Positions 9,383 through 64,000 of a DNA stretch of 64,000 nt are shown in pieces. A model generated the notes under the pieces. That model worked only from the letters and a program-made list of their open reading frames with translations, did no database searches and was not told the origin of the DNA. Source of the stretch: an uncultured virus (IMG/VR IMGVR_UViG_3300025168_000065) (taxonomy: Duplodnaviria; Heunggongvirae; Uroviricota; Caudoviricetes; Crassvirales); the IMG/VR virus record IMGVR_UViG_3300025168_000065; one strand, written 5' to 3'. The first letter of the stretch is position 1; each line of letters starts with the position of its first letter. Made by a program: the position numbers and the translations under genes.

Positions 9383-9383
9383 T

Positions 9384-10586: not shown

Positions 10587-10589
10587 AAA

Positions 10590-10781: not shown

Positions 10782-10814
10782 AAAAATAATAGTAGTATGG
10801 CCTTCTTATAGTTA

Positions 10815-18700: not shown

Positions 18701-21013
18701 AAGGTCAGATGGTATTTGATCCATAACACCATTAACTTTATCATACATATCAATTTCACGCTGTCCTTCCTCTTTAGTAATTTCATTATTTAAAATACGC
18801 TCTTTAGTTTTTTGAATAAACGCATCTCTTACTACAGGTTCGTTATGAATATCTTCATACATTTCAAATATACCATCAGCTAATTTGGTAAAGTCTCCAG
18901 TAGATGCTACAGTTGCAATAGCTGAAGGAGTACCAATTACAAATCCTCCCACTGCCTCTTGTGCTCCTGCTCTTATTACTTGCTTAACCCCATCTCCAAA
19001 TGACTCAGGAGTATTAAACATATCTTTACCTTTCATAGCATTATAAGCTTCTTTAAAACCTATATCAGCAATTTCTTGTGCTAAACCTGTTTCAAACTCA
19101 GCAAGTCCCGCTGCACTTACTACTAACGATCCTTGCGCAATCATACTATTTACTTCTTTTTTAACTACTTCTCTAAAAGTTTTTCCTGTAATATCTTTCC
19201 CATGCTTATTAAGAACTTTTAATAATACTTTACTTGCTAAACCTTTCTGAGCAATAGCATTTCTAAACCCAAGATTTTCTAACACACCAACTACTATACC
19301 TAAAGGAATAGTAAACTTAACTTTTTCTCCTTCTGTTACATCATCAAACTCAGGATTGTTAGCCATCTCCTCCATTACATGATCCTCTACTTGAGATATC
19401 ATATTAAAAACTCTTATTGGTGCAGGCCCTAACATAGCTGGTATAGACTCAGTTACTCCTAAAAGAGCACCGCCCCAAAAACCTTCTTTGGTTTTTTTAG
19501 TTGCCTCAATAGTAGTTTCAGACATTCCTATTGTTTCTCTTAAGCCTCCTCTTACCGCTGGTATTACGTCAGATTTAATATCTTTTCTTAACTCGTCTAA
19601 AATTTTAGATTCTATATCATCTAATAAAGTTGTAGTTACTTTTCGAGTAGAAGCAGGGGTACCATCTTTTATAGATCTTGCTGATTTAATTTCTTTAGTA
19701 GTTCCTGGAGTTTTTTCTATTAACTCTAAAAATCTTTCATACTCTTCATTATTAGAAATAATTTCTTGTATTCTTTCATCTGTGTATGTATCTCCTAAGG
19801 CACCTGATTCTCTTGCTTTAGTAAGAACTTTTGTCCTATAATCATCTTCACTCATTAATCCACTACCCACTGGTCCTTGTACATAAGTTCCAAAATCAAT
19901 AATTCTATTTGCATTTTGAGTAGCTATACGTGCAGCTCCATCTAAAAAAGCATTATATCCTAAGCCTAAAACACTCTTTTGCTTAGACCTCATTTCATAC
20001 CAATCACCTAAACTCTCATCTAACTCTTTACTTTTAGTTCGTAAATTCTTTTGAGATGTTCTAATGTTTTGTTGAGCAATAGCAAGTTTCTCTGCAAGAA
20101 CTTTAGGTGTTGTTGACATTTGATTTCCATCAGGGCCTTCTACATATATTACTTCATCAGGATCTTTTTCTTCTATATTATTAGAATCATAAAAATTTTT
20201 AGCAGCTAAATATTCTTCTATTTCATTTTTTATTAAAGAAGCTTCATCACTAAAACTTTTATTTATTTCATCAACTTCTTTTTTATTTTGAATCTTGGCT
20301 TGTTTTTTAATATATCCTGACTCTAATTGCTGCAGCTTAGAACTTTCTTCTTTATTATCTTTTAAAAATTGTTTAAGTTCATCTGAATATTTACCTTTAA
20401 AGAATAATGCATCTAACTCTACACTCAACTTTTCTCCATTAGCCGCTTCTACTTTCATTTCATCTCCAGTAAAATCTGCTTCTTTAAAAGTAAATCCGTA
20501 GTCATTAAAATGATAGTTCATTAAAGGAACTACATTCTCTTCTGTTTTAGAAATAAGGTCTGGTGTAATTTGTTGTAAAGACTCCTCAAAAAAATCTGTA
20601 GTATCCTCTTGATCAGGAGTAACAAATTCTGTTTCTTCAGTAGATATAGTTTCAGGTTGTATTAAATCTTCAGGATTTACCTGATTTCCTGCCCCTATAT
20701 TTGTAGTTTCAACATCATTAGTTTCGGTTTCCAAAGACTCCGATGAGCCAGGTTCTTGAACCTCCTCTGTATCTGACACCATAACTTCCTCTTCTCCAGT
20801 ACCATTGCCAACAAGATTTTTTTTTTCACCGATACCAAATAAAGTTACGAAGTCATTAACAGTTCCATTATATCCTGTTTCAACAAAGTGTTTATAGGTA
20901 TCATTAACAGCATCTTCATTGGTATTAAGGAGTGCTTTATAATCATCTATTGTACCTTGGTATCCTGTCTCTACAAAATATTGGTACCCGTCATTAATTG
21001 CTTCTTCGTTCAT
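12734..21013 (-). CDS. giant internal virion/ejection (polyvalent-type) protein with zincin-like HExxH motif
   Basis: 2759 aa; TIHINAP..RTVAHEVMH; third of three internal-protein genes after the tail genes. Confidence 0.75.
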   Translation of the reverse strand: MNEEAINDGYQYFVETGYQGTIDDYKALLNTNEDAVNDTYKHFVETGYNGTVNDFVTLFGIGEKKNLVGNGTGEEEVMVSDTEEVQEPGSSESLETETNDVETTNIGAGNQVNPEDLIQPETISTEETEFVTPDQEDTTDFFEESLQQITPDLISKTEENVVPLMNYHFNDYGFTFKEADFTGDEMKVEAANGEKLSVELDALFFKGKYSDELKQFLKDNKEESSKLQQLESGYIKKQAKIQNKKEVDEINKSFSDEASLIKNEIEEYLAAKNFYDSNNIEEKDPDEVIYVEGPDGNQMSTTPKVLAEKLAIAQQNIRTSQKNLRTKSKELDESLGDWYEMRSKQKSVLGLGYNAFLDGAARIATQNANRIIDFGTYVQGPVGSGLMSEDDYRTKVLTKARESGALGDTYTDERIQEIISNNEEYERFLELIEKTPGTTKEIKSARSIKDGTPASTRKVTTTLLDDIESKILDELRKDIKSDVIPAVRGGLRETIGMSETTIEATKKTKEGFWGGALLGVTESIPAMLGPAPIRVFNMISQVEDHVMEEMANNPEFDDVTEGEKVKFTIPLGIVVGVLENLGFRNAIAQKGLASKVLLKVLNKHGKDITGKTFREVVKKEVNSMIAQGSLVVSAAGLAEFETGLAQEIADIGFKEAYNAMKGKDMFNTPESFGDGVKQVIRAGAQEAVGGFVIGTPSAIATVASTGDFTKLADGIFEMYEDIHNEPVVRDAFIQKTKERILNNEITKEEGQREIDMYDKVNGVMDQIPSDLPTNQKKELLGNLLRQQELQDDIDKYNKQLTKRQQQELLDLENDVERIVRSGNIQNQQEAQETELNTQAINELKEEGVENPTPEQIKTKRDAIQKSSPKKVDVQESTEGSQEVGERDTQGEPAQESIESETDIDSQTQEEVEDLTSIFNEQTGMQEQEGTPEQTDSKVKTKGVEVDSENDNVTIEKNDGTKVTLPGVSVSENVSVTETAGDPKAVRILPSLLRQAKNAGKAIAKLMPNANIVLHATEDAYNQAVSAANKGTRGTFSPTTNTIHINAPKANTRTVAHEVMHAVLLKKLGINADFNKVTKRMLDAVVKAMPKDSNLKEVIEDFAKDYAIEEQNEEQVSELFGYLSAAYTQLDGPTKNIVKRWLQKAAKAVGLPVNITEFTKEEADMIEFFNTVSKKVREGTEVTEGDIEVIDDGTAPIGTPTTINKPSKTEKPQIDFKKSYDMSLVTPKNKIDLLGLVDNIIKNDQKVWFWVADQLGLGNGMDAGPSFALQPENIKKGAIWASGLDTKKLDKNITAADFIFIISGSPETSKLFNKKVFDKYANNLGDYNTFKKKALATNPVKNIRETLEEFDSWPAMRRSPKRKTFLIAVNEQSKKPNTKFHALVNTLGGFVDLQSLRDGFYKENEFAQNDIMMVLKPTSVGGKSNHSTYAYDILGEVVGVPDIKLNAKEIMPEAIKAKIEGKGISEQTSSIAPYGGAVGTAVKSITKPATEKAQKASVDRLAKMYEMKKNGVIFNKPGVNRVALEDWANSLGFKVEVKRGDIGELTGYKLIQPDGKVYTPTKEKAQRSVDEKAQKTFNKFDTPLQIINKARDLNFTDPAILDYLTRVRKFTKTEVRDLMKVNADLLSIIPPSMGNIVGGMKAGIKLFNKVSNHYNKLITKNAKAKTKLSEQEIMDQAMDFLRAQPEYKKMADAVLKGISTEQMVLEMDVAKALGGKQSTNLNAAIRKARIILRAKTKGKKELRKIQRELRNFMRKTLPADIYSKSEAIKLMRKIEQANKDNINEIMNEVMEFAAQKNNVRLHKSIDDLLDPKNTLKKISNILKGVKIDETTRKRLASLKKRIDDGSLATQDKVLEYIYKLETEYDNINKQPEKTEGDYTAMADLQIIMNMVKANNLMSNEDITKVNVLAGVETELKQIITAGRTILKEQLRKAHLEYQRQFEQVFLDVTGRTESFKDQAKKQLKEEGVENPTEAEIQDKITDIIENIKETKDTRARETAKIEKVKNRFKKLGNNIIQRLGNVMAKNSDLFLLMDKISLLPAELFEGNTQEEVTKKIDAANREMKGRMLMNDALIISKFQELFGKKYKSIVTSFGRKTEAFVLPDGTEMVLSPNQMYYLYNQYKDSANHPGLQKTFSTDEKGVAKVMNEITTRLESEQYKNLKEFADWQVEILYPMLYNHYNEAYQDIYRTQMPYNVNYAGMVYREGQEAEGVNLIPGADGGKIQYHNVVAANSTKMREQNKKKIRPMDGTNVLYTYMRDMEYFSAYARPVNDINKLFTNDVIKSEIERLHGKPTMDAITAAIQKIANKGTFKENAQMDNAVDIMQDLFILSRLGINPVVTLKQLTSFITYASDIGYGNWMKNAALSRFGKGKDVKAIWKEISENSTYLQDRDAKSMTKAIEMYSDDAMESVFPDITIGGKRLMTGANKESLINILMYTTKVGDRGAIYLGGVPNYVYYKNKALEAGKTEQEAIDEAIVKFERDTKRSQQSTDLQDRDYYQTRGPIFRALNMFLTTPKQYLRKEVYGIRNMYRLASSGGKSGKGTKTDAARIFLTYHVIMPVFFQFVANGMPGLLADWEDEDAKDLGTAAILGNINALFIYGEFAVKIKDLIIGKPARFLQFKNLPVLTQGEEVFNRFARYRDTKDPKKKQEALYKALAETSQITGLPVNNVRKIFKNMEQLIEGGEDPAKVIMRLFNFSEYQIQNEAERKRNKKSKRKAKKKAGSNPMISGDPMNSEDPMNDKTNPMLGKDPMNSDNPMK
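18280..18432 (-). CDS. overprinted 50-aa basic protein MPFKSQAQRKWMY...
   Basis: Alternative-frame ORF with ATG and TAG, A-rich upstream leader and locally raised GC. Confidence 0.7.
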   Translation of the reverse strand: MPFKSQAQRKWMYKNLPRVAKKWESETPKGSLPRKVSKVKQILTRRRKRK

Positions 21014-24192: not shown

Positions 24193-24999
24193 CTATGGAT
24201 TACTTTTCATTACACTTCCTCCTACAGCAAACAATTCAACTGCATTGGTATTAGTATTTTCAAGCGTAAAATTTAAATAGTATCCACGTGCACCATGTGA
24301 TTCTGCTACAGCATTTTTAGCAAATAAAATAAAGTCTGTAACTGAAGGAACTGTACCTGTAGTACAGTTAACAGTAATAGATCCTAATGTAGCTACACCA
24401 GTAGCAGTAGTAGAGGGTTGAGTGATAGCGGTTATTACACCACCAAGAGTAGGCGTACCTGCTGGAGCAGGGAATGTAGTAGGGGTTACCCAATACATTT
24501 CATCACCAACACTTACTATACTTCCTATGTCTACGTTAAACTCTATAACAACTGCTGTTACAGGACCTGTAATATTAATACACGCCCCAATCCCATTTAC
24601 CGACCTGTCTTTTAAATCTAAGGTGTTTTCATTCTCTCTTAAAAACGTAAACCACTCTCCTTCCTTTTGCTCAAAGTAGGTAGACAACATAGACCCAGTC
24701 CCTAAGTCTGAGAACAAACTTGTACACGCCCACCTGTCATCACTCTCGTACGACATGGTCTTAAACAATTTAATAGTCATCGGCTCTACATTAAACACTG
24801 AGGTAATAGTAGAACTATACTGAACACCGTAATAATTATTTCTTAGTAAATTGGTATTATGTCTATATAACTGACCACCTTTCCAGCTGTAAAAAAAACC
24901 ATTCATACCACACATATAATCTGGTATAAAAGAATAGAACGAAGGCCAGCCTTTTACGTCTTCGCTGTAGGATAATGTTTGTGCTGGGTATGATGACAT
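24193..24999 (-). CDS. tail protein, probably the C-terminal part of the nozzle/stabilization protein
   Basis: TLSYSEDVKGWPSFYSFIP, KLFKTMSYES, KEGEWF and RGYY motifs. Confidence 0.7.
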   Translation of the reverse strand: MSSYPAQTLSYSEDVKGWPSFYSFIPDYMCGMNGFFYSWKGGQLYRHNTNLLRNNYYGVQYSSTITSVFNVEPMTIKLFKTMSYESDDRWACTSLFSDLGTGSMLSTYFEQKEGEWFTFLRENENTLDLKDRSVNGIGACINITGPVTAVVIEFNVDIGSIVSVGDEMYWVTPTTFPAPAGTPTLGGVITAITQPSTTATGVATLGSITVNCTTGTVPSVTDFILFAKNAVAESHGARGYYLNFTLENTNTNAVELFAVGGSVMKSNP

Positions 25000-26459: not shown

Positions 26460-29400
26460 TTAACATGTTCCACTATTTATTACCACACCATTTTGACCAA
26501 GTTGAATCCATTTTTTTGGTGACGTTGTTGATGGGTTATTTACGTCAACTATATAAAAACCAGTACCTAAAAATCCTTCAAAAAACAAAGTTCCATTTAC
26601 ATTAACTTGTGCATTTGGATTACAAGTATTAGTACTGTCCATATAACATATGTCTCCAATTGTAGGGGTACTATAAGCACCAGAGAATGATTTCAATCCT
26701 AAACTTAAAGGACTATTTGTATCAGTAGCACATACTTGTGTAGCATTCTGTGTTTGTGGGCCAAAGTAACATGTGTTACATGGAGGAGTACAAGTACAAC
26801 AAGCTTCTTCAATAGTTGATCCCCCTGTACAATAGCATACTGATTGACTTGTTATCATTCTTAAATCCCATATTAAATATAAATAATCATTAACAGCAGG
26901 CATATTAAAAGCTGGTTCAGTAGCCTGAAACACACCTGTAGATGGATTAGTTATAGGACCACTAACTACTGATGATGCCGCAAGTAAACTGGCAATATCT
27001 GCAGTACTATTACTATACAAAGTACTTGAAGATAATATTTTAAAACTATGTAATGCAGGATCAAAATCAAAATTATCAGGAATAATTTTTTGAGTCCTTA
27101 TATTTATATCTGAACCTGTAGATGGGAAAACACCAACTCCTCTTACCCCTGTAGATGATTGATATATTGCTGGTTGAGATGTTGTTAAAGCTGCTGCCGT
27201 TAAATTATAAGGACTTATTGTAGGAGTGTTAGTCCAATTATAAGATGTATGAATAAACTCATTAACATAATTTGGAGAATTAACCACAACCTGAACAACT
27301 GTTAAAGGTATGGTTGGCGGACACTCTATTGTTATCTCATAGCTACTTAAATTATTAACTGTAATATCTACATTAGCTTGTGCCGATGGAAGAGATTTGT
27401 TAAAACTTAATGTTCCTGCACCTGTTAATCCTACTTGATTTATAACTACCGAACCGTTCCAAGTAATAACTATATCAATAGACCCTAAAGTTATATTGTA
27501 TGGTATATTAACTTGACCTGTTACTGTTCCTAAAGAAACATTGTAATTTAAATTATCAGTAGTACTATACTGAGTTAATGTAGTACCACAAGGAACCTTA
27601 GCTCCTGGAATAAATATACCAGTGTTGTTTGTAGTTAAAACATACTCATTCATATAAGGATCATAACCTCCTAATTTTTGAGTAGCAAGTTGAGCGTTAA
27701 ATCTATCTCTAAACCAAGAGTTCATACCATATTGTGACACAACTTGTAGTTGATCACTACCTTGAGATGCACCTCTTAAGTTAAGTACAGCTCCTCTTTT
27801 GGTATCTGTAAAAAACATATCATATCCCCAAGAGGTAAAACTTTCAGGATTAAAACTAATTCCAAATTCTTCTATTCGTGCTACCTGAGTTCCTAATATT
27901 TCAGGTACAGATGCAATTGCACCACCACCTGTAGAGTCAGTAATAACATTTTTCTTTACTAATACATATGATATTTTATCTTCTTGCAATGTAAGAATGT
28001 CTGTTTCTCTTGCGTGTAATTTCATGATAGGACCAAAAGAAGTTTCGCAATCTTTAAAGTTTACTAAACCTAAATTAAACTCATTTAAGTTATTACTGTT
28101 AGCGGCCCCACTATACACACCGCTGTATGTCATTCCTGCAAAACGGTCAGCCTCTTTAAAGTCTTGATTAGAAACTGCTAATACTCTTTCTCCTAAATTA
28201 AAAAACTTACCTGCTGGACTATCTCCAATTCTATAACTCTCAACACCATTTCCAAATGTATAACAATTATATGCAGTTAAGTCTGTAGTTAAATCTGTAG
28301 TTGGACTTTGATTAACAGAGTTAGGAGCTAAACTATAAGTGTTAGACTGAACGTCATATATAGTATTAGCCATATGATAAGGCTGAGCACCTGCAGTTTG
28401 AGGTTCAATATCTAATAGTTCTGATGCATCATAAAATAAATTAGGGTCTGCATCTTGAGGCACAGTTTCAAATACAAATAAAGATCCCCCTCTTGTAACC
28501 TCTATAAGTGTACTACAATGACCATTATAATATTCAAATGCTTCCCAACAACGAGGAATATTACAAGTATTTACAAAAAATTGTCTACCATTTGTAGCTT
28601 GTCTTATTCTACACACACTATTAAATTGATTTTCTGTACACCCACTTCCTGATGTAACCAGAACTGGATCAAAAGATATAGCCATTTCTTGAGCAGTACT
28701 TGCCTGTTGAGTTGTCATTTGACTTGCAAGATCATCTCCTACAGCCCAAGCGTGAAAGCTTTGGTAATCTGAAGTAGAAACAAAAGACCTATCGTAAGTT
28801 AAACTCTTACTATCACAATCGCCTCCGCCTCCGCCTCTCCAATTACGAATTTTAATTCTTATAGTTGATCCAGCAGGAATGGTATAAGGAACACTTGGAG
28901 TAGCATTATCATTTAAACTATAATTACTGATACATCCATCTTTAAAATTACCTGCATCATTTGCATCTTTAGACATTCTTCCTCTAAAGTAAGAAGGCTC
29001 TGTGCTTTCAATATTAAAACTACCTGGTTTTAATAACATATAAAGACCAGCTAAAGAAACACTCGTTATCTCTTTAGTAGCAAAAGCCTCTACTGCTAAA
29101 ACAGTTGTAGACACTTCTGATGCTACCGCACCTCCTGTGTCCACCTTTACTATTAATTCATCTCCAACTTTTACTAAGTTTTGATTATTACCCTCTAACT
29201 TAAACCACACTAAACTTGGGTCGTTTTCATTAGTCAGACCACTACTTACTCCTGACTGTTTACCTGATCCATCTTGCTGGTAAAAAGTATTTGAAAAAAT
29301 AGTCATATAATTCCCTTCACTTGGCTTTATTACAAACTTATATTTCTTTGCCCAATAAGGAGGTAAGTTACTTAAAGTAACTCGTATTTTATTTTTATAA

Positions 29401-31700
29401 GTTGACTTGTCAGGTTCAACAAATACAGTGTTAGTATCAGAGACTAATACTGTAGATGATCTACCGTAGTCATCCATATACACAACGCCTACTTCGTAAT
29501 CTCTATTTGAATGTAGACTGTTTGTTTTACTTACCTGCCTGTATCCAGCAGTACATCCATACCCTATAAAGTTATAATAAATAAATGCTTCACTATAATT
29601 TGAGGAAGCAGGTGAAGTTCCGTCTGTATAATAATATTGAGTAGCAGGAAGCTCCAGAATGAAACCACCAGCAGTTGCTGTAAACTCAATACCTGAAGGG
29701 CTACACAATGCAGAGCTTCCAGATGCAGGAGTTATTTGATAATTTACCCCACTTGTTTCTAAAGTTACTAAACCACCATTTATATCTGTTAACCCTAAGT
29801 CATTGGCTGCTATTGAATTAACACTTGCTGTTAATCCTGTAGTCATATCCATTACTATATCTCCTACTGCTAATCCAGCAATTAAAGTAAAGTCTATATT
29901 TGAATTGGTTAAAAATCCTGCAACAGCTGCGTCTGTAGCTCCTGAAGTAATAATAGTATTACTACATGTTAAAGGAAAAGATGATGGAGTACATTGTTGT
30001 GCTACCGTTCTTCCACCATTAATTAATTCTAAGTTAGTTCCTGTCATAGGAGTTACTGCAGCTTCATAAAACTTATCTGAAAGTGTAGCTCCTTCATTTG
30101 AATTATAACAAGGATAAAGCTCTTGAATTGAGTTAGAACTAAATCCTTGAGCAATAGAACCTCCTATTCTTTCTTTAAACTCTTGAGATGCACACATTTG
30201 TGTTACATTAGGATAGTCAACAGAACACGTAAAACTCATTCTAATTGTAAAAGGAGACTGCTGATTAAAATTATTTCCATTATTAGTACTACACTCTACC
30301 CCTGTACCGGAATCATTACAGGTAATACTGTTTTGAGAAATAGAAAAACCAAAGAAAAAAGTAGTCCCTGTTTTTATATCTCCTGAAGTTGGATTTGCAG
30401 CCGTTAGATCCCATGTTAATCGAGAGTCGGTACCTAAAGCTCCGCCTCCTATAGTATAAGCAGAAGTCTGTACAAGTGGATTTGCAGCTACTGCAGGAAC
30501 ACCACCTTGAGCAGGACTTGCAACCGATCCATTTCCTAAAGGAACTCCCGCTATCTCTTCAAAGACAGGAGCTACAGTATAATTTATAGGTATTTTATTC
30601 CCATCAAAAGCAGAAAGTAAATCATAACCATCCACATAGTTTCCGTATATTAATCTATTACCTTTAATGGTTTGAGCCTTAGCAGTTCTTGGAACATTAT
30701 CATAAAGTCTTAGTAATTCATCTGAACCTAATGTGGTATAGATTTCACTATTTGTAAATCGATGAGTCATAGTATCATTATTAGGAATACCTAAGTCATC
30801 TTTTTTAAATCTTTTAATAACATTTATAACATTAGATGTAGTTTGTTTAAATAACAAATCTATTTCTACTACTCTTTTAGTACCTGTAGAGAATGTAACA
30901 TCAAAAGCTTTATAAACATTATACATCCCTGCATTTAAATAGTCATCAATACTAAATCTAAATTCACGAGGTTGAAACGCAGGATCACTAAATAAAGATA
31001 TTGCACTATACCCTCCATCTGTATATCTATATCTATAAGCAAAAGTAACAAACCTGGTTTGTAAATAATTTTCTTGACCTACATAGTCCTGTATAGGAAC
31101 CACTACTGGAGATCCTAACGGAAAATTTTGTCCTGCCGTAGTATCAAACTCTTCGTATCCTGGTGGCTTAACTATTACGCTAATATCTTCTTCTTTAAAT
31201 ATAGTATCTATACCGCCTACAGGATAATCATAGTCTCTTGTTACATTAATTACTCGAGGAGGATTTATATCGTCAGTAAAAAATAATAAATCTTCTATCT
31301 TATTTATACCAGTAATTAAATGTTTTTCATCAAAATTTAAAACAGATGTACTTATACAGTGATAAGTCAAAGAAGAAGTATTGGTATTAAAAGATACTAT
31401 TAAGTCAACCTTACCTGTAGGAGAGTTTGGATTATTACTATCATGTATAAACCAATAAAGAGTTTCATTTATACCATCTTCATAAACTCCAAGTGTCTTT
31501 CCATTGACTGTTTGCCCTGCATATTCAACATTAGTTAAAAGAGAATTACCTTTAGAGTTTTCTACAGCTCCTATTTCAGTAGCTTCAGTAGACCCTAAAC
31601 GAACATTTAAAGCATCTATATACTCTCCAGGTGGAACCAAGCGTTCATCAACGCTCTTATTCATTTTACCTGCTATAAAATTTGTTGAGGCTTTTGCCAT
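26460..31700 (-). CDS. tail nozzle / stabilization protein
   Basis: GKMNKSVDERLVPPGEYIDALN, NRLIYGNY, FGNGVES, FGISFNPESF and LGGYDPY motifs. Confidence 0.75.
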   Translation of the reverse strand: MAKASTNFIAGKMNKSVDERLVPPGEYIDALNVRLGSTEATEIGAVENSKGNSLLTNVEYAGQTVNGKTLGVYEDGINETLYWFIHDSNNPNSPTGKVDLIVSFNTNTSSLTYHCISTSVLNFDEKHLITGINKIEDLLFFTDDINPPRVINVTRDYDYPVGGIDTIFKEEDISVIVKPPGYEEFDTTAGQNFPLGSPVVVPIQDYVGQENYLQTRFVTFAYRYRYTDGGYSAISLFSDPAFQPREFRFSIDDYLNAGMYNVYKAFDVTFSTGTKRVVEIDLLFKQTTSNVINVIKRFKKDDLGIPNNDTMTHRFTNSEIYTTLGSDELLRLYDNVPRTAKAQTIKGNRLIYGNYVDGYDLLSAFDGNKIPINYTVAPVFEEIAGVPLGNGSVASPAQGGVPAVAANPLVQTSAYTIGGGALGTDSRLTWDLTAANPTSGDIKTGTTFFFGFSISQNSITCNDSGTGVECSTNNGNNFNQQSPFTIRMSFTCSVDYPNVTQMCASQEFKERIGGSIAQGFSSNSIQELYPCYNSNEGATLSDKFYEAAVTPMTGTNLELINGGRTVAQQCTPSSFPLTCSNTIITSGATDAAVAGFLTNSNIDFTLIAGLAVGDIVMDMTTGLTASVNSIAANDLGLTDINGGLVTLETSGVNYQITPASGSSALCSPSGIEFTATAGGFILELPATQYYYTDGTSPASSNYSEAFIYYNFIGYGCTAGYRQVSKTNSLHSNRDYEVGVVYMDDYGRSSTVLVSDTNTVFVEPDKSTYKNKIRVTLSNLPPYWAKKYKFVIKPSEGNYMTIFSNTFYQQDGSGKQSGVSSGLTNENDPSLVWFKLEGNNQNLVKVGDELIVKVDTGGAVASEVSTTVLAVEAFATKEITSVSLAGLYMLLKPGSFNIESTEPSYFRGRMSKDANDAGNFKDGCISNYSLNDNATPSVPYTIPAGSTIRIKIRNWRGGGGGDCDSKSLTYDRSFVSTSDYQSFHAWAVGDDLASQMTTQQASTAQEMAISFDPVLVTSGSGCTENQFNSVCRIRQATNGRQFFVNTCNIPRCWEAFEYYNGHCSTLIEVTRGGSLFVFETVPQDADPNLFYDASELLDIEPQTAGAQPYHMANTIYDVQSNTYSLAPNSVNQSPTTDLTTDLTAYNCYTFGNGVESYRIGDSPAGKFFNLGERVLAVSNQDFKEADRFAGMTYSGVYSGAANSNNLNEFNLGLVNFKDCETSFGPIMKLHARETDILTLQEDKISYVLVKKNVITDSTGGGAIASVPEILGTQVARIEEFGISFNPESFTSWGYDMFFTDTKRGAVLNLRGASQGSDQLQVVSQYGMNSWFRDRFNAQLATQKLGGYDPYMNEYVLTTNNTGIFIPGAKVPCGTTLTQYSTTDNLNYNVSLGTVTGQVNIPYNITLGSIDIVITWNGSVVINQVGLTGAGTLSFNKSLPSAQANVDITVNNLSSYEITIECPPTIPLTVVQVVVNSPNYVNEFIHTSYNWTNTPTISPYNLTAAALTTSQPAIYQSSTGVRGVGVFPSTGSDINIRTQKIIPDNFDFDPALHSFKILSSSTLYSNSTADIASLLAASSVVSGPITNPSTGVFQATEPAFNMPAVNDYLYLIWDLRMITSQSVCYCTGGSTIEEACCTCTPPCNTCYFGPQTQNATQVCATDTNSPLSLGLKSFSGAYSTPTIGDICYMDSTNTCNPNAQVNVNGTLFFEGFLGTGFYIVDVNNPSTTSPKKWIQLGQNGVVINSGTC

Positions 31701-57660: not shown

Positions 57661-57918
57661 TTACACAACTACAACAACATCCCTCTCCTGAATAACAGCG
57701 TAGGGATTGTCCTCTATTAACATCTCATGACCTGCAGCTCCGTCATAGTAAATAATATCTCCAGAGTTAATTACACTCACATCAGTACCAGCCTTTACAA
57801 CCTCACCCTTCTTGTACCTAAACCCAGAAGCATCTTGAGCAGATAATAAAAGACCTGACTCAGTTTTTAACTCTTCTTTTATTTTTTTTATTACTATGTA
57901 CTTTCCTATTGGCTTCAT
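57661..57918 (-). CDS. groES: co-chaperonin GroES (Cpn10)
   Basis: MKPIGKYIVI, KTESGLLL, GEVVKAG, SGDIIYY and ERDVVVV motifs. Confidence 0.9.
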   Translation of the reverse strand: MKPIGKYIVIKKIKEELKTESGLLLSAQDASGFRYKKGEVVKAGTDVSVINSGDIIYYDGAAGHEMLIEDNPYAVIQERDVVVVV

Positions 57919-57983: not shown

Positions 57984-59579
57984 TTAATCATCTTTCCCTG
58001 CTCTGGCGTGCGTTATAATTGCATTGGTAGTAAGGATAGTCGTAGCTACACTTATTGCATTAGAGAGCGCCTGACAGGTAACCTTAGCTGGATCAATAAC
58101 CCCCATCTTAAACATATCTCCCCACTCCCCTGTCTTTACATTCAATCCTTCATTATTAGCATCATACATAAGCTTTTCGTTATCATCTTCAGATAACTCT
58201 AAGCCTGCATTAGAATATATTTGCAACAAAGGCGCTCGAAGTGCTGTCGCTAAAATCTTACCTGCAATCTTATAGTTCATATCTTCAGCGAATGTAGCTT
58301 TTTTATAAAGCGCTACACCTCCCCCTGCTACTATCCCTTCCTGTAGTGCGGACCGCACTGCACAGACAGAGTCATCGACTCTGTCGAATTTTTCTTTTTG
58401 CTCAATATCAGAGGTAGCTCCAACGTAAATACATCCTATACCACCAACCAAAGATGCGATACGCTCGTTCACAAAGTCTCTCTCGTGCTTAGCAGTTAGT
58501 GTTTCTTGCTGTAGTCTAAGCTCTGTCACCCTGTTCATAGTCTCCTTAGTAATCTCGCCGTTCTTAATTATTATGGCATTGTCTTTCCCTACAATAATTT
58601 TATCTGCATACCCTAAGTCCTCAGGTCTAATCAATGATAAATCATCTCCAGTCTTTTCTGAAAAGTATTTAGCACCTACTGAGAACGCAATGTCCTGCAT
58701 TAACTCATGAGACTTGTAGCCGAATGATGGCACCATGATATTACAAAACTTTAAACCATTACGCTGAACGTTAGCCGCCATAGTATTAATAACATTCTGA
58801 GAGCAGTTCCCTATGATAAGAAGCTTCTCTCCAGCATTAATAATTGGTTTAAGTACATTCTCAATCTGAAGTATGTTGGTTATCTCTGTATCACACAGCA
58901 AAACCTTAACACCCTCCATAATACACTCGTCCTTTCTCTGGTCATTAATAAACATCGTAGAGGTATAACCCCTATCAACCTTTATCCCGTTAGTAACCTC
59001 AGAATATGTTTTGTCAGTTTGAGATCTCTCAACCGTTACAATACCATCCCTACCAACTTCCTTGTAGGCCTCAGCTATAATCTTACCGATCTCTGGATCA
59101 TTATTAGCAGAGATAGTCGCAATATCCTCCAGCATATCATCAGTAACTGGGATTGCTCTTTCTTTAATCTCGTCTAAAATAGCTTCTCCCTGCCATCTAA
59201 TATCTCTAACTATCTCTATGGTATTATCACCCTCCTTAATATACTTCTGACCCGCCTTTACTAAAGCCTCCGTCAAAACAATAGCCGTAGTTGTTCCATC
59301 ACCAGCTACATTAGCCGTCTTCTCCGAAGCTTGCTTCATCATCCTAACCGCTAAGTTCTCTACAGGATCAATAAGAAATATACTCTTAGCCACAGTAACA
59401 CCATCCTTAGTCACTGTTAACCCCTGAGTATGCTGGGTCGATTCAATTAAAACAGTCTGACCCTGAGGCCCCAATGTTGACTTAACCGCATTAGATATTT
59501 TTGAGATTCCCGATATTAGTTTTGTTCTTGCCTGCTCATCAAACGACAGGTCTTTTGGAATGTATCCTTGTTCTTGCAT
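57984..59579 (-). CDS. groEL: chaperonin GroEL (Cpn60)
   Basis: VKSTLGPQG, TKDGVTVAK, AGDGTTTA, GIVAGGG and GVIDPAKV motifs. Confidence 0.97.
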   Translation of the reverse strand: MQEQGYIPKDLSFDEQARTKLISGISKISNAVKSTLGPQGQTVLIESTQHTQGLTVTKDGVTVAKSIFLIDPVENLAVRMMKQASEKTANVAGDGTTTAIVLTEALVKAGQKYIKEGDNTIEIVRDIRWQGEAILDEIKERAIPVTDDMLEDIATISANNDPEIGKIIAEAYKEVGRDGIVTVERSQTDKTYSEVTNGIKVDRGYTSTMFINDQRKDECIMEGVKVLLCDTEITNILQIENVLKPIINAGEKLLIIGNCSQNVINTMAANVQRNGLKFCNIMVPSFGYKSHELMQDIAFSVGAKYFSEKTGDDLSLIRPEDLGYADKIIVGKDNAIIIKNGEITKETMNRVTELRLQQETLTAKHERDFVNERIASLVGGIGCIYVGATSDIEQKEKFDRVDDSVCAVRSALQEGIVAGGGVALYKKATFAEDMNYKIAGKILATALRAPLLQIYSNAGLELSEDDNEKLMYDANNEGLNVKTGEWGDMFKMGVIDPAKVTCQALSNAISVATTILTTNAIITHARAGKDD

Positions 59580-59612
59580 CTTGTTGTGTATTTGATTAAA
59601 ATTAATTTAAAG

Positions 59613-59620
59613 CAAAGATA
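59613..59620 (-). promoter_or_regulatory. -7 promoter box TATCTTTG for groEL
   Basis: caaagata 33 nt upstream of the ATG. Confidence 0.65.
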
Positions 59621-59639
59621 CTAAAAATAAATAAACACT

Positions 59640-59822
59640 ATGACAACATTTTAAGTTTTTACTTTCTATTTGTTATATATATATTTATTATTATTATTAT
59701 TATTTATTATTATATATTTTAGACTTAAAGTCGTCATCTTGTCATAAATAAATATAATATATTGAAAATCAATTAGTTAGGCCCATGACGACTTTTTTTA
59801 AAGTCATCATAACTATGACGAG
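59640..59822. promoter_or_regulatory. origin-like locus B: ATGAC-core iterons, (TAT)n tract, IHF-consensus site
   Basis: ATGACAAC 59640; TAAAGTCGTCATCTTGTCAT 59726-59745; ATGACGACTTT 59785; ATGACGAG 59815; AATCAATTAGTTA 59767-59779. Confidence 0.6.
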
Positions 59823-59837
59823 TCTTGAAATATTATT

Positions 59838-59870
59838 AAAAAAAAGAGGTAGACCATAAGCCTACCCCTC
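59838..59870 (-). terminator. intrinsic terminator
   Basis: Imperfect gaggtag/ctacccctc stem plus A8. Confidence 0.6.
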
Positions 59871-59897
59871 TCACACAACAGAACAAATAAGAAATCT

Positions 59898-60095
59898 TTA
59901 GAAGTCTAACTGCCTCCAATTCTTTTTATTTTCCGCTAACTCAATACCCTCAGCTATACGGTTTATCTTACGATCATTCTTAACCGAACGCTTAATACGA
60001 GAAGCCTGAGCTATACCCGTCTCACCATCTCTACGCTCATTTATAAGTCTTCCGTTCTTTACATATAACCCATCTACATAATCCATTTTTTTCAT
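59898..60095 (-). CDS. hypothetical protein (first late-strand gene)
   Basis: DGLYVKNGRLIN motif; likely start MKKMD at 60095, with TATCTTTG at 60114-60121. Confidence 0.6.
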   Translation of the reverse strand: MKKMDYVDGLYVKNGRLINERRDGETGIAQASRIKRSVKNDRKINRIAEGIELAENKKNWRQLDF

Positions 60096-60558
60096 AGTGC
60101 TTTTTATTTTTAACAAAGATATAAAATTTTTTTAGATGTCTCGGGGTTGAGGGTTATTATACGTTATACGCACACACATTGCCTCAGGAAATAGATTTCA
60201 AAAAGCACCCCCCCCATGACGATTTGGAAATTTTCACCCCAACTTTTTGACGTTTTTGTATGAGCTTCCCGTATGCCGTAGGGATTCCCCTTGTACACTA
60301 CCTCTATCCCTACCTTACACTCCTGTTGTACTCTTAATGTCTACGATTACACCAATACCTTCCCCTCTTTGCAAGGGATAAAAGAGAATATATCTTTAGT
60401 TAGATAAAGAGAGATGTCTCTTAATCCCATCCCCATCCCCAAAATACCTAAACATATCAACAAATCAATAGATCATTTCGAAAGCACGTAAGATGCTGAT
60501 AATCAGTTAGTTTCATTTCATTTCATTTATGGAACAAGATATTCTTTTGAATTTATAG

Positions 60559-60588
60559 TTGACAATCCAATTATTTATAGTATATTTG
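60559..60588 (+). promoter_or_regulatory. early promoter (TTG-N19-TATATTTG)
   Basis: Matches the Bacteroidota -33/-7 consensus; precedes the first plus-strand ORF. Confidence 0.75.
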
Positions 60589-60630
60589 TACAGAATTTAA
60601 ACAATTAATAACTTAAAAGACACACACAAA

Positions 60631-60777
60631 ATGGAACAAAGAGTAGAGTACATTAGACAAGAAATCAGAGTATTGAATCAAGCATTAACATTAGTAAATG
60701 AGATAGATTCTCTTTACATTAAAGAAATGATAAAAGAAAAGGAAAAATACATTCGCCTGATGAGAATGCAAGACTAA
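60631..60777 (+). CDS. small early protein (48 aa, not in ORF track)
   Basis: MEQRVEYIRQEIRVLNQAL...; same ACACACACAAAATG leader as neighbouring genes. Confidence 0.7.
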   Translation: MEQRVEYIRQEIRVLNQALTLVNEIDSLYIKEMIKEKEKYIRLMRMQD

Positions 60778-60778
60778 A

Positions 60779-60846
60779 CCTCACCAACTACCGAATGGCT
60801 CGTACTGAATTAAGTACGGGCTTTTCGTAGTAGAGGGATATTCCTC
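60779..60846 (+). ncRNA. structured intergenic element B1 (long hairpin plus GAGGGATRTTCCTC hairpin)
   Basis: gctcgtact/agtacgggc stem, actac/gtagt outer stem, 3' motif shared with 62463-62480. Confidence 0.65.
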
Positions 60847-60868
60847 GCAAGATTAAAACACACACAAA

Positions 60869-61351
60869 ATGAATAAGCAACAAGAAGAATTAGCAATGAG
60901 ATTAGATTTAAAAACACCATACAAATGGGTAATGGATAATCTAATTCCAAACCAATCATCTGATGTACAAGAGAGATGGAAGATAATGAGTAAAATGGTA
61001 GAATTGAATCAGGAATGGGTAGAGGAAGTAGTAAACAATGGAGATTTAAAGTTATCTGAAGTATTGCATGACTTTAGAGGTATCTACTCAGAGGATGAGC
61101 ATTTCGTACCAAGAATATCTACTGAAGTTTCTGATGATAGGGTTAACGGATACACTAACCTTCAAACCTACCGATTATGTTTAGTATTAGATAACGAGCA
61201 AGTAGTACCTAATCCCTTAACAAGATTCTTAGAGTTAGTACAAGAGAATGAGTTTGAATCTAATGATATTGATATTATCAATTGGAATGAGGTAATTGAG
61301 AGATACTCTGATAGCATTCTTTTAGAGCATTCGTTTTACGCAAACAAATAA
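60869..61351 (+). CDS. early hypothetical protein (two-module)
   Basis: 160 aa; second half has NGYTNLQTY...INWNEV motif. Confidence 0.7.
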   Translation: MNKQQEELAMRLDLKTPYKWVMDNLIPNQSSDVQERWKIMSKMVELNQEWVEEVVNNGDLKLSEVLHDFRGIYSEDEHFVPRISTEVSDDRVNGYTNLQTYRLCLVLDNEQVVPNPLTRFLELVQENEFESNDIDIINWNEVIERYSDSILLEHSFYANK

Positions 61352-61405
61352 GATACTCTGATGAGGACTCAGTGTCCGAAACACTACGCAAGTAGTGTCA
61401 GTATC
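61352..61405 (+). ncRNA. type I hammerhead ribozyme HH1 (predicted cleavage after C61399)
   Basis: gatact-CTGATGA-ggac tcagt gtcc-GAAA-cactac gcaa gtagtg-TC-agtatc: complete core and three perfect stems. Confidence 0.93.
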
Positions 61406-61431
61406 ATAAGATACCAATTAACACACACACA

Positions 61432-61641
61432 ATGACAACAAGCGAAAAAGCAGTAGAGGTACTTAAAACCAAGTACGGCATAGATGCAAGAATCTATAAG
61501 GACAATGTATACTTAGCAGTATGGAATGATGACTTATCCGACACCATAGATGTTGAAGCGTCTAAAGGACAAGTAGAAGATTGGGCATTAGAACATGACA
61601 AAGAATGTACTTGGTATGGAGAATATAAAGCAAAGCAATAG
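61432..61641 (+). CDS. early hypothetical protein flanked by two hammerheads
   Basis: 69-aa acidic ORF with CA-rich leader. Confidence 0.75.
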   Translation: MTTSEKAVEVLKTKYGIDARIYKDNVYLAVWNDDLSDTIDVEASKGQVEDWALEHDKECTWYGEYKAKQ

Positions 61642-61642
61642 A

Positions 61643-61699
61643 GATACTCTGATGATGGATTTAATATCCGAAACTACTCTTAATTGAGTAGTCAGTATC
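61643..61699 (+). ncRNA. type I hammerhead ribozyme HH2 (predicted cleavage after C61693)
   Basis: gatact-CTGATGA-t-ggat ttaat atcc-GAAA-ctactc ttaatt gagtag-TC-agtatc; one extra U after the core; compensatory changes versus HH1. Confidence 0.9.
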
Positions 61700-61726
61700 A
61701 TAAGATACCAATTTAAATAACACACA

Positions 61727-61951
61727 ATGTATAAAACAATGGTTAAAGATTCCCAAGATTTTTGGGGAAAAGTAGCGTCCGAAAATGGATGGAGTATGAA
61801 TGGTAGAGGATGTACAATATGGATTAATAAAGACAATGAAGTATTAGATAGTATCTACAACAAAGAAGATAATAAAGAATCTTATATTGTACAAGTAGAT
61901 GTAGATTATGAAGGTTTCTATGAGAATGAGGTATTAATTAAAACAATATAG
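61727..61951 (+). CDS. early hypothetical protein
   Basis: 74 aa; FWGKVASENGW motif; CA-rich leader. Confidence 0.75.
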   Translation: MYKTMVKDSQDFWGKVASENGWSMNGRGCTIWINKDNEVLDSIYNKEDNKESYIVQVDVDYEGFYENEVLIKTI

Positions 61952-61953
61952 AT

Positions 61954-62112
61954 ATGAAAGATATATTAGGATTACCGATAAAATGGTTAGCAAGATACTA
62001 CTACACAATATTGATAGTATGGTTAACATTAACGATGAGTAGCTGTGGATTAAGATTTGGAGACTACCATGCATGGGAAAAAGATTATAAACAAAAATGT
62101 ATAAGAAAATGA
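61954..62112 (+). CDS. small putative lipoprotein (52 aa, not in ORF track)
   Basis: MKDILGLPIKWLARYYYTILIVWLTLTMSSCGLRFG...; hydrophobic stretch ending in MSSC. Confidence 0.6.
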   Translation: MKDILGLPIKWLARYYYTILIVWLTLTMSSCGLRFGDYHAWEKDYKQKCIRK

Positions 62113-62411
62113 TGAGATTAAAATTAAGTATGATAACATTTAATATGTTAGAGAGTCATTTCAGTAATGACTACGGGAAAAAGAATGGTAATGGTGTAGC
62201 TATGCCACTTGGAGATGATAGCTTACATATGATTCATAATGAAGGTGCATTAGAGAATTACAAAGAGACGATAACAAAAAAGTTTGGAGATGTTATGGTG
62301 TTATTACAGGATCCTGACGAGGTATGGTTTAACAAGGTAAAGATTGATGACGGAGTATTTCAAGATTATCATAGAAAATATATGCAGAAAGCAATGAATA
62401 ATAGGAATTAA
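62097..62411 (+). CDS. early hypothetical protein
   Basis: ORF track; true start may be ATG 62109. Confidence 0.7.
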   Translation: MYKKMMRLKLSMITFNMLESHFSNDYGKKNGNGVAMPLGDDSLHMIHNEGALENYKETITKKFGDVMVLLQDPDEVWFNKVKIDDGVFQDYHRKYMQKAMNNRN

Positions 62412-62412
62412 C

Positions 62413-62485
62413 GTGTGTGTTTCCATCATCTAACCTCACTACGAAAGTAGTGGGGATTTGGTGGTAGAGGGATGTTCCTCACACA
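62413..62485 (+). ncRNA. structured intergenic element B2
   Basis: cctcactac-gaaa-gtagtgggg hairpin, ccatca/tggtgg outer stem, GAGGGATGTTCCTC hairpin, tgtgt/acaca closing stem. Confidence 0.65.
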
Positions 62486-62501
62486 ATTAAATTAAATTAT
62501 T

Positions 62502-62993
62502 ATGAGTAGAAAAGAATTAGAAGCAAAGTTTATGGAGTTTCCTAAACTGGTAGTAGCAAAGTATGATGTAGGAGAATACATCCAAGACCAAATTAAATTC
62601 TTCCAAGATGACAAGCAAGAGTTTCTTGTAAGTAAACTATGGGATGAAGAGAGAGATGTTGAAAGTGTAACTGATAAAGAAATAGAAGAACACTTCTATG
62701 ATGATGTTTGGATTAGTGTTCAATGTTATGAAGACTTTGAGTATGACTTGACTGAAGAGTTTAAAAAACACATAGGTAAAGAAGTTTATGTAGAGGGAAG
62801 AAATATGGGATGGAGAAATAGAAGTGGACATAAATGTTTCACTATAAATAAACCATTAGACTTGTTTAAAGAAATAGCACCTGAATGTGAACTGACTTAT
62901 GAAATGGAGAAAGTAACCGATAAAGAGTATGAGGTAAGAATTGCACACCACGACTCACCAATGGGAGAATATTATAACTTAAAAATTAAATAG
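62502..62993 (+). CDS. early acidic hypothetical protein
   Basis: GRNMGWRNRSG and HHDSPMGE motifs. Confidence 0.75.
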   Translation: MSRKELEAKFMEFPKLVVAKYDVGEYIQDQIKFFQDDKQEFLVSKLWDEERDVESVTDKEIEEHFYDDVWISVQCYEDFEYDLTEEFKKHIGKEVYVEGRNMGWRNRSGHKCFTINKPLDLFKEIAPECELTYEMEKVTDKEYEVRIAHHDSPMGEYYNLKIK

Positions 62994-62995
62994 AT

Positions 62996-63241
62996 ATGAA
63001 TTGGAAAGAAATGAAAAGTAAGATACTATCAAATAGTATATTATTAGAGAAACTAAAAAAGTTTCCTAACAGAAAGTTTATTCAGAAGTGTCAGCAAAAA
63101 TTAGATGCATACAAGAAACCTAAACCAAATCCTTTAGATTGGTTTAATCATTTTGTAGATTACATTGAAAATACAGATAGCAATCTTTATAATCAAGCGT
63201 GTGAGTATGCCGACAATAAAGAAAAGCAAGAAAATGAATAG
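62996..63241 (+). CDS. early hypothetical protein
   Basis: 81 aa; YNQACEYAD motif. Confidence 0.65.
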   Translation: MNWKEMKSKILSNSILLEKLKKFPNRKFIQKCQQKLDAYKKPKPNPLDWFNHFVDYIENTDSNLYNQACEYADNKEKQENE

Positions 63242-63303
63242 AGAATTAACATACAATAAGTGGATAAAGTATATCCATGATTATCAATTAAATAAAAATA
63301 AAA
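63233..63303 (+). repeat. 71-bp dispersed repeat, copy 2 (copy 1 at 1460-1530)
   Basis: Direct alignment, 2 mismatches. Confidence 0.95.
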
Positions 63304-63641
63304 TTATGAAAAAAGATCAAGCGTTAAAAAAAATCAGTAATATGTTGGGAGACAAACATATACATATATCAGATGAGGTAAAAATAGATGATATAAAGGG
63401 AACAAAAGGGAAAGTATATGTAGATAATTCATTGTTAATGGAATTAATAGATGAGATTGCTACTCAAATGACAGAAGAAAAATTTGGAGAATACTATCAC
63501 AATACGGGATTTGATAATGTTAAAGATAGAACGTACACTTTAACAGATGAAGCACAGGATTTTTACAATAAAAAGTATGATGAGGTAGAGGGTATGATAA
63601 ATAACATTACTAACATATATTCAAATAATGATGAGCGATAG
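63234..63641 (+). CDS. early hypothetical protein
   Basis: ORF track 63165..63641; likely start 63234 or 63306. Confidence 0.65.
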   Translation: MNRELTYNKWIKYIHDYQLNKNKIMKKDQALKKISNMLGDKHIHISDEVKIDDIKGTKGKVYVDNSLLMELIDEIATQMTEEKFGEYYHNTGFDNVKDRTYTLTDEAQDFYNKKYDEVEGMINNITNIYSNNDER

Positions 63642-63707
63642 ATTAGAAAGTAGTTTTGCAGAAATAATAATAGTAATTTTAATAACATTAATAATTTTAA
63701 TATCAAT

Positions 63708-63989
63708 ATGAAACAGACAAGCGAATTAATTAAGGAAGTAGGAAGAGAGGTAGTAATGCTACTACTTGAAAAGAATAAAGCGTATGGAGACACTGCAAAT
63801 GATCCTCCTAAAATATTTTCTAAACTATCAGCAAAAGAGGGAATACTTGCGAGGATAGATGACAAGTTAAGTAGGATTAAAACAAGTGGGTTAAACGATA
63901 AAACTGAGGATACAATGCTTGATTTAATTGGATACCTTATATTGTATAGAGTACAATGTAAGAAGGAAAATCCCCCAAATGGGCAGTAA
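63708..63989 (+). CDS. DUF1599-like protein, copy 2
   Basis: Core nearly identical in amino acids to 2751..3050. Confidence 0.75.
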   Translation: MKQTSELIKEVGREVVMLLLEKNKAYGDTANDPPKIFSKLSAKEGILARIDDKLSRIKTSGLNDKTEDTMLDLIGYLILYRVQCKKENPPNGQ

Positions 63990-64000
63990 TTCCCCAAAAT

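Follow-up and report, generated by a model that had tools for sequence, protein, structure and literature searches.

What purpose might self-cleaving ribozymes serve between the genes of a bacteriophage? The question is raised by a 64 000-nucleotide stretch of DNA from an uncultured virus (IMG/VR record IMGVR_UViG_3300025168_000065; the whole stretch is called the window below), which holds two hammerhead motifs, HH1 and HH2, at two junctions of a block of small genes. Both are genuine hammerhead motifs of type I, and they belong to a large, covarying family with a rigid position relative to the flanking genes. We consider it probable that they are active ribozymes with which a multi-gene early RNA cleaves itself, thereby uncoupling neighbouring early genes, and the family is best explained as one that is common in phages of marine Flavobacteriales.

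That hammerheads occur near phage genes had been stated in a sequence-only reading of this DNA, and rightly so. Perreault et al. (2011; PMC3088659) described multiple hammerheads flanking prophage genes, inferred from them that long phage transcripts are cut down to mRNAs the length of an operon or a gene, and demonstrated in vitro that three tandem arrangements cleave, these being from prophages of Clostridium scindens, Azorhizobium caulinodans and Agrobacterium tumefaciens. The same source reports the HHphage motif of haloviruses HF1 and HF2, which is located 13 nt before a start codon in an early polycistronic transcript and for which a mapped 5′ end falls within 3 nt of the cut. The role put forward here is the standard one, an idea dating to 2011, and is probably right; a review of 2019 described the purpose of phage hammerheads, abundant as they are in phage genomes, as still undefined (PMC6765202).

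Two type I hammerhead motifs

Membership of the hammerhead class was judged by the consensus and the rejection rules laid down in the methods of Perreault et al. (PMC3088659). Both elements contain the core nucleotides C3 U4 G5 A6 N7 G8 A9, G12 A13 A14 and H17 (not G), flanked by the standard core-adjacent pairs G10.1-C11.1, A1.1-U2.1 and A15.1-U16.1, and each has a GUC triplet at its predicted cleavage site. Written segment by segment, HH1 reads GAUACU, CUGAUGA, GGAC-UCAGU-GUCC, GAA, A-CACUAC-GCAA-GUAGUG-U, C61399, AGUAUC, and HH2 reads GAUACU, CUGAUGA, U, GGAU-UUAAU-AUCC, GAA, A-CUACUC-UUAAUU-GAGUAG-U, C61693, AGUAUC (coordinates in Table 1). The stems count 6, 4 and 7 bp in either copy; stem I is identical, and stems II and III differ in such a way that pairing is preserved. 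Since loops close stems II and III and stem I is left open, the topology is that of type I. HH1 begins directly (0 nt) after a stop codon ending at 61351 and HH2 1 nt after one ending at 61641, and the predicted cuts precede the next start codons by 32 nt (ATG at 61432) and 33 nt (ATG at 61727). On the full core and three stems and their positions, the pairing-preserving differences, the topology and these distances, the sequence-only reading agrees with what we find, with one omission: its account of the core is accurate for HH1 and not for HH2, whose extra U between A9 and stem II had escaped notice.

Both elements reach their lowest energy in the three-stem hammerhead fold, at −19.0 kcal/mol for HH1 (z −2.7) and −17.0 kcal/mol for HH2 (z −3.0). 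A loose pattern, CTGATGA..GAAA..TCAG, occurs twice in the window against 0.12 occurrences expected, a count reached by one shuffle in 100, and a strict scan of the window for the core with three stems found no further site with a stem I of more than 2 bp.

The extra nucleotide of HH2, U61656, separates A9 from the first stem II pair and thereby interrupts a core that is uninterrupted in the consensus and in HH1. A nucleotide is inserted after A9 in nine of the 75 unique family members described below; it is a U in 9/9, and the carriers have seven different stem I sequences, so that the insertion is to be seen as tolerated and not as decay. Two other loci (L017/L036) hold a twin of HH2 that lacks this U. 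Accepted hammerheads offer precedents: that of the (+) strand of chrysanthemum chlorotic mottle viroid (CChMVd) has an extra A10 at the same core position and is still active, at a moderately lowered rate (PMC1636495), and those of Penelope-like elements conserve a nucleotide between A9 and G10.1 (PMC4209133). All share a single insert at the position of U61656, but here the insert is always U and is found in type I ribozymes of phages, with long stems III. Because of the same insertion in relatives and of these precedents, HH2 is classed as a variant member of the family, best read as tolerated and possibly slower.

A covarying family below the Rfam thresholds

At gathering thresholds, Rfam 15 yields no match in the whole window. 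When E-values up to 10 are allowed within 61300-61760, Hammerhead_1 (RF00163) still gives none, and the sole ribozyme match is RAGATH-1-hammerhead (RF03152; 18.2 bits, E 1.7, cut-off 56.3); this model aligns with the core and with stems I and III of HH2, and its 5′ hairpin, which has no counterpart here, is aligned to gaps. A covariance model of the family, R1, was built from a seed of ten close relatives that included HH1 and left out HH2. Run over the 64 kb with filters off, it retrieves just HH1 (80.4 bits) and HH2 (62.1 bits, E 2.9e-15), the next site scoring 12.9 bits. A covariance-model match had been named in advance as a check on the elements: it failed with the Rfam models, which stay below threshold, and succeeded at both sites with the family-specific one. 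The Rfam miss reflects the models rather than the elements, because RF00163, which represents the same class and the same permutation with an open stem I and whose threshold the window elements do not reach, also under-scores family members in five related phage records (G002-G006): it matches four of 12 R1 sites there, at 13.5-16.6 bits for a gathering threshold of 34 bits. No Rfam gathering match was obtained in 20 family loci either.

Relatives were collected from IMG/VR. An exact-pattern scan (stem I, core and GAAAC motif) returned 17 loci, namely 12 complete hammerheads and five chance matches in coding sequence; a scan by the 3′ side and the downstream block returned 20 loci, six of them due to chance; and a wider pattern, ACUCUGADGA..GAAAC..GUCAGU, returned 116 stretches. 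With a scanner of our own, 75 unique hammerhead sequences were obtained over all loci; the 11 core nucleotides are present in 75/75, though the scan itself demanded this. R1 was applied to 100 sources (the window, nine wider loci and 90 of the 116 pattern loci, the other 26 being duplicates of covered contigs or left out) and gave 93 matches, corresponding to 74 distinct rows, from phage contigs. Among the 90 pattern loci 67 match R1, and 22 of the other 23 are stem-less, coding-like chance matches; one extra-U hammerhead (L101) was missed by R1 at E 0.001.

In the alignment of the 74 rows, which is fitted to the model and stems from a search pattern in which the three inner pairs of stem I and the first two of stem III were prescribed, 99.0% of the 1223 stem cells are paired versus 68.9% in shuffles, compensatory changes are seen in 14 of the 17 pairs, the covariation score is 0.732 against 0.159 for the control (0/500 shuffles reach it), and pairing falls to 26-42% when the partners are slid by 1-3 columns. 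A comparison independent of the model is provided by the gene starting ATGACAACAAGC, which is preceded by a hammerhead with the same stem III in the window and in two other records (G002 and L099): at these orthologous junctions the stems II differ (GGAC/GUCC, GGAU/AUCC and GUCC/GGAC), and so do the stems I (GAUACU/AGUAUC versus AAUACU/AGUAUU).

As to distribution, the 12 R1 matches in G002-G006 (four near-complete genomes and one that is 78% complete) are all confined to a few kb near one end of the contig, and the hammerhead region of G002 aligns with 60000-64000 of the window; that region is missing from the nearest record, G001, a fragment of 26.8 kb. A blastn search against named phages found no match for 60600-63300, and a 19-nt match of the HH1 region in Klebsiella phages was set aside as chance. 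In bacterial genome collections, 14 of the 18 R1-matching loci are labelled Flavobacteriales, Weeksellaceae or Bacteroidetes, and 62 of 80 pattern loci have no R1 match at E 0.001. One member is found in a cultured phage, Flavobacterium phage vB_FspP_elemoB_14-3B (NC_062741.1; L166), at 17213-17270 on the minus strand (40.6 bits). Its gp69 is annotated as starting at 17232, within the hammerhead; the predicted cut is at 17219, and the first ATG beyond it, at 17190, is 28 nt downstream and in the same frame as gp69. The host is Flavobacterium sp. BAL314, and with this cultured pair the use of the ribozymes to the phage becomes directly testable.

Two oddities of the collection may be recorded. 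A 2857-bp contig of a metagenome-assembled genome from sediment (L212-L214) carries the densest array found here, at least four R1 matches plus one cut by the contig end within 2.9 kb. In two loci (L001, 1344-1439; L021, 1269-1369) the loop of stem III contains insertions of 45-65 nt with the stem base intact, and stem III therefore tolerates large extra domains.

Layout of the family and a hairpin behind stem I

The position of the hammerheads was surveyed in 79 unique hammerhead-plus-flank sequences, counting open reading frames (ORFs) of at least 30 codons, or of at least 15 if running off the locus. An ORF starts downstream of the cut in 78 of the 79, at a distance of 19-35 nt in 67 (median 27), and the stop codon of an upstream ORF (n=74) is found between −5 and +6 nt relative to stem I in 60 cases (median 1). 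The family thus shows a fixed order of stop codon, ribozyme, 19-35-nt leader and ATG. With such a layout the downstream RNA would begin with a short leader, and the upstream RNA would keep its stop codon and end in the folded ribozyme. With the stop codon directly against stem I, a ribosome that terminates there would sit on the 5′ strand of this stem, and ribozyme folding and translation termination upstream may well be mutually exclusive.

A further feature had gone unmentioned in the sequence-only description of the elements: a downstream sequence able to replace stem I. The block AUAAGAUACC is invariant behind the ribozyme in all 11 unique members with a GAUACU/AGUAUC stem I, the rest of the leader being variable. 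It provides for a 5-bp hairpin, AGUAUC-AUAA-GAUAC, of −3.9 kcal/mol when taken as an isolated 5′ end (z −6.4); when the hairpin is forced to form, the best structure of every GAUACU member loses just 0.4 kcal/mol against the hammerhead conformer with stem I. Among the 68 unique members with another stem I, a downstream complement of at least 5 nt exists in just one. The hairpin shows no covariation across the 11 members because both arms are invariant. We infer that it would take over after the cut, freeing the product, opposing re-ligation and capping the 5′-OH end, and that before the cut it would compete with the active fold. A target-site duplication, suggested by the occurrence of ATAAGATAC on both sides of the ribozyme, was rejected, its upstream copy being just partly conserved among the 11 subfamily members.

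Identity of stem I between copies is not peculiar to the window. The outer three pairs, the only ones counted as the search had prescribed the inner three, are common to nine of 22 within-contig hammerhead pairs versus 6.2% of 3059 between-contig pairs, and to eight of the 17 within-contig pairs in which stems II and III both differ, in a small sample where related contigs are not independent. This sharing agrees either with homogenisation between copies or with a requirement that product ends be interchangeable.

The carrier phage and its gene block

The window is phage DNA, encoding a large terminase, portal, tail and virion proteins, GroEL, a Sak-type annealing protein, an exonuclease and a primase/helicase. 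The terminase is 72% identical to that of an uncultured member of Caudoviricetes (MW202828.1), 45% to those of Flavobacterium phages of the genus Elemovirus and 36-37% to those of Cellulophaga phages; the carrier is a marine Flavobacteriia-type podophage. Genes lie on the plus strand from 60631 to the window end and at 10-12521, and on the minus strand at 12499-59579. HH1 and HH2, co-oriented on the plus strand, bracket a 69-aa gene, which is the arrangement of clustered phage hammerheads. Covarying type I hammerheads within a same-strand block of small phage genes, as claimed in the sequence-only reading, are indeed what is found; its idea of 'gene-sized units' goes too far, with two sites only in 64 kb.

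The best promoter-like site of 59500-64000 is TTGACA-N16-TATATT (11/12), which also fits TTG-N19-TAnnTTTG, the Bacteroidota promoter consensus; no second such site exists on the plus strand of 60500-64000. The transcription unit likely starts there, in which case the ribozymes would sit behind the second and third ORFs of an apparent single early unit. The proteins flanking the ribozymes belong to no Pfam or PHROG family and gave no usable Atlas lead. RNA ligase, kinase and cyclic-phosphodiesterase families were found neither among 47 further ORFs (Pfam) nor in the other Pfam and PHROG protein scans.

Table 1. Hammerheads and neighbouring features of the window
Feature	Position	Strand	Remarks
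HH1, type I hammerhead	61352..61405	+	identified by core, fold and R1; in the R1 seed
HH1 stem I	61352-61357/61400-61405	+
HH1 core CUGAUGA	61358-61364	+
HH1 stem-loop II	61365-61377	+
HH1 GAA	61378-61380	+
HH1 stem-loop III	61381-61398	+
HH1 predicted cleavage	after C61399	+
HH2, type I hammerhead with extra U	61643..61699	+	extra U at 61656; not in the R1 seed
HH2 stem I	61643-61648/61694-61699	+
HH2 core	61649-61655	+
HH2 stem-loop II	61657-61669	+
HH2 GAA	61670-61672	+
HH2 stem-loop III	61673-61692	+
HH2 predicted cleavage	after C61693	+
HH1 leader	61400..61431	+	32 nt left on the downstream RNA after the predicted cut (AGUAUCAUAAGAUACCAAUUAACACACACACA)
HH2 leader	61694..61726	+	33 nt left after the predicted cut
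Alternative hairpin GUAUC-AUAA-GAUAC	61401..61414	+	uses the 3′ strand of HH1 stem I; 5′ end of the predicted cleavage product
Alternative hairpin, HH2 copy	61695..61708	+	same sequence as the HH1 copy
Upstream gene	60869..61351	+	160 aa, no family match; stop codon abuts HH1
Gene between the ribozymes	61432..61641	+	69 aa; orthologue follows a hammerhead in G002 and L099
Gene downstream of HH2	61727..61951	+	74 aa; first 12 nt shared with genes behind other-stem hammerheads in L013
Promoter-like site	60559..60588	+	TTGACA-N16-TATATT at 60559-60586
Second conserved element	60778-60868 and 62412-62501	+	see text

The other junctions read in 60631-64000 have no hammerhead, and two of them hold a different conserved element (Table 1) in a hammerhead-like slot: stop codon, element, AAUUAAA-type leader, ATG. 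It is made up of a covarying GC-rich hairpin, 3-4 U and the invariant block GGUGGUAGAGGGAUGUUCCUCRCACAAUUAAA, which can fold as a long imperfect hairpin (folding z −3.9 and −5.3). It has no Rfam match and occurs in eight IMG/VR loci (L168-L175), six of them on contigs that also bear family hammerheads; at about 1290-1343 of L001 its first hairpin is followed by a hammerhead in place of the invariant block. The element may combine a terminator with a phage promoter, or it may be a further site of processing.

Role of the hammerheads

The sequence-only reading had proposed self-cleavage of a polycistronic early RNA, and this is the most likely role, as Perreault et al. (2011; PMC3088659) had proposed for phage hammerheads. 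HH1 and HH2 would be transcribed within a multi-gene early RNA starting at or near the promoter-like site, and each would fold and cut itself after C17 (61399 and 61693). The upstream RNA, stop codon included, would terminate in a compact ribozyme body with a 2′,3′-cyclic phosphate, and the downstream RNA would start with a 5′-OH, 32-33 nt ahead of its ATG. In the GAUACU subfamily the released AGUAUC end would then fold back on the conserved GAUAC ten bases downstream, which would free the product, hinder re-ligation and cap the 5′ end with a small hairpin. Neighbouring early genes would in sum be uncoupled onto separate RNAs, whose stability and translation could differ.

Several observations weigh against this scheme. 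Cleavage may be slow: HH2 departs from the consensus by its inserted U, and a comparable inserted A moderately slows the viroid hammerhead (PMC1636495); the downstream hairpin, nearly as stable as stem I, could retard the cut instead of locking it; and no contact or pseudoknot between stems I and II, such as fast cleavage at low Mg2+ calls for, was seen, the complementarity of loop II to 25 nt of either flank being not enriched (2.78 versus 2.53 and 2.58 versus 2.49 in shuffles) in a scan to which non-Watson-Crick contacts are invisible. Pseudoknots of loop II or III with the flanks gave no signal, and the speed at cellular Mg2+ is therefore uncertain. The hammerheads are also dispensable, since R1 has no match in MW202828.1, the closest named relative by terminase, nor in Cellulophaga phages phi13:2 and phi38:1 and Tenacibaculum phage Gundel_1; G002 has none after the orthologue of the 69-aa gene. 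Within the gene block, just two junctions carry a hammerhead, the single unit is assumed from promoter motifs only, and the second conserved element might hold a terminator or promoter. Four RNA libraries, in which 6-10% of the words sampled were present, yielded 12 short contigs from relatives; these leave 61440-61627 uncovered and span no whole ribozyme, and as contigs cannot show RNA ends, such as those predicted at 61399/61400 and 61693/61694, they say nothing for or against cleavage.

Could the new 5′ end itself be what matters? Cleavage would then serve mainly translation, by making an internal gene look promoter-proximal with an end 19-35 nt before its start codon, a variant compatible with the scheme above to which we give a rather small chance. 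Flavobacteriales-type host ribosomes make little use of Shine-Dalgarno pairing. It is likewise doubtful, if conceivable, that in phages of such Shine-Dalgarno-poor hosts cleavage creates a promoter-independent 5′ end required for efficient downstream translation, the GAUACU hairpin locking the cut and protecting the end. The narrow spread of cut-to-ATG distances speaks for a translational purpose, but a compact phage genome gives short spacers anyway. Host-type promoter matches at 392-422 and 60559-60588 lie about 25-45 nt before ATGs, with similar A/U- or AC-rich leaders; on the other hand, many neighbours in the block are translated without a ribozyme. A precedent comes from a 2026 paper, in which self-cleavage of type I hammerheads in the 5′ untranslated regions of some fungal RNA viruses is needed for translation initiation (PMC13725137), but it is eukaryotic and cap-related.

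Other readings give the stems or the cassettes a different use. Two cuts would release a 294-nt RNA, 61400-61693, with the 69-aa gene, whose AGUAUC end could pair with the 5′ strand of HH2 stem I and yield a circle or re-joining in trans; in the back-joined product the HH2 body would be followed by the HH1 leader (...CCAAUUAACACAC). The identical stem I of HH1 and HH2 and the sharing of outer pairs within contigs, including copies that differ in stems II and III, would suit this; for clustered phage hammerheads it had been considered that circular or spliced products might arise (PMC3088659), and eukaryotic tandem ribozyme pairs 186-399 nt apart have been linked to circular RNAs (PMC13725137). 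Yet Perreault et al. could not detect such products (PMC3088659), the downstream hairpin would tie up the 5′ end and oppose ligation, stem I compatibility of successive hammerheads is not general, and we regard the idea as very improbable. An endless ORF on the circle is ruled out by stops in all three frames (8, 14 and 2) and by a hammerhead spacing that is a multiple of three in six of 17 intervals, the chance level. That the ribozyme-plus-leader cassettes are portable boundary modules for the swapping of early genes by recombination, RNA cutting being secondary, seems improbable too, despite three observations that agree with it: the same hammerhead and leader stand before different genes (the HH2 twin in L017/L036 has another ORF behind it), the same genes follow hammerheads with different stems, and presence or absence varies among close relatives. 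Recombination sites would need neither the catalytic core nor the compensatory stem changes that are maintained, and the fixed orientation and distance to the ATG point to a function at the RNA level. It is highly unlikely, lastly, that the elements are inactive relics or plain stabilising hairpins that do not cut themselves and on which host RNases or nothing act: the failure to detect a tertiary contact, the core insertion in HH2 and the sub-threshold Rfam scores would be expected of relics, but not the intact core of all 75 unique members (required by the scan), the covariation in every stem, or an extra U that recurs with seven stem I sequences and is evidently tolerated.

If the preferred reading, self-cleavage of early RNA, is set beside known systems, the prophage clusters of Perreault et al. 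are among the closest: there too several nearby hammerheads, co-oriented with small phage genes, flank single genes, with the same proposed role. Type II topology or a pseudoknot is found in many bacterial examples (PMC3088659); the hammerheads of the window have type I topology, their open stem I counts 6 bp and no pseudoknot was detectable, and the genomes here are those of lytic-looking Flavobacteriia podophages instead of prophages. The HF1/HF2 HHphage also precedes a start codon shortly, in an early polycistronic viral region, but it belongs to an archaeal virus, is a variant of unusual structure, lies 13 nt from the ATG, and stands at the first ORF, not between ORFs (PMC3088659). The fungal RNA virus hammerheads resemble ours in being of type I with a long helix III upstream of an ORF, and their tandem pairs enclose a few hundred nt; the genomes are RNA, the translation is eukaryotic and cap-independent, and the bacterial likeness is by analogy alone (PMC13725137).

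No new kind of element is thus added, but a large, strongly covarying type I family that falls below current Rfam thresholds. New with this case are the rigid layout, the competing or locking hairpin, a core insertion that recurs, and the presence of the family in a cultured phage. The finding would gain weight if the translational or 5′-end reading proved true; bacterial hammerheads would then have a defined function parallel to that in fungal RNA viruses (PMC13725137).

A protein-based counterpart exists in phage T7, whose early transcript contains RNase III sites, structured intergenic elements at which the polycistronic RNA is cut between genes. There the enzyme is a host protein acting on double-stranded hairpins, and the ends are 5′-phosphate and 3′-OH, not 5′-OH and cyclic phosphate. 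The analogy with the window ribozymes is functional only and lies in intergenic cutting of early RNA.

Other features of the window

On the minus strand, a GroEL-like chaperonin gene (57984-59579; phrog_5725, E 2e-134) adjoins one for a Cpn10/GroES-like co-chaperonin (57661-57918). Further along the same strand (26460-31700, 24193-24999 and 12734-21013) are two matches to crAss-phage muzzle families (PF25731, PF25729) and a neighbouring ORF of 2759 aa, which has no Pfam or PHROG match. Judging from the muzzle-family matches, this phage has a structural module in common with crAss-like phages; that the 2759-aa ORF might be a virion-delivered enzyme is speculation.

Between the divergent gene blocks, 59580-60560 is a region of about 1 kb without long ORFs and with AT-rich simple repeats. 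The heptamer ATGACGA occurs seven times in the window versus 2.6 expected; four copies are in this region and two stand in tandem before the primase gene (5577-5591). Two small proteins with a DnaA C-terminal helix-turn-helix are encoded at 3119-3412 and 10071-10586. The region 59580-60560 is possibly an origin with iterons.

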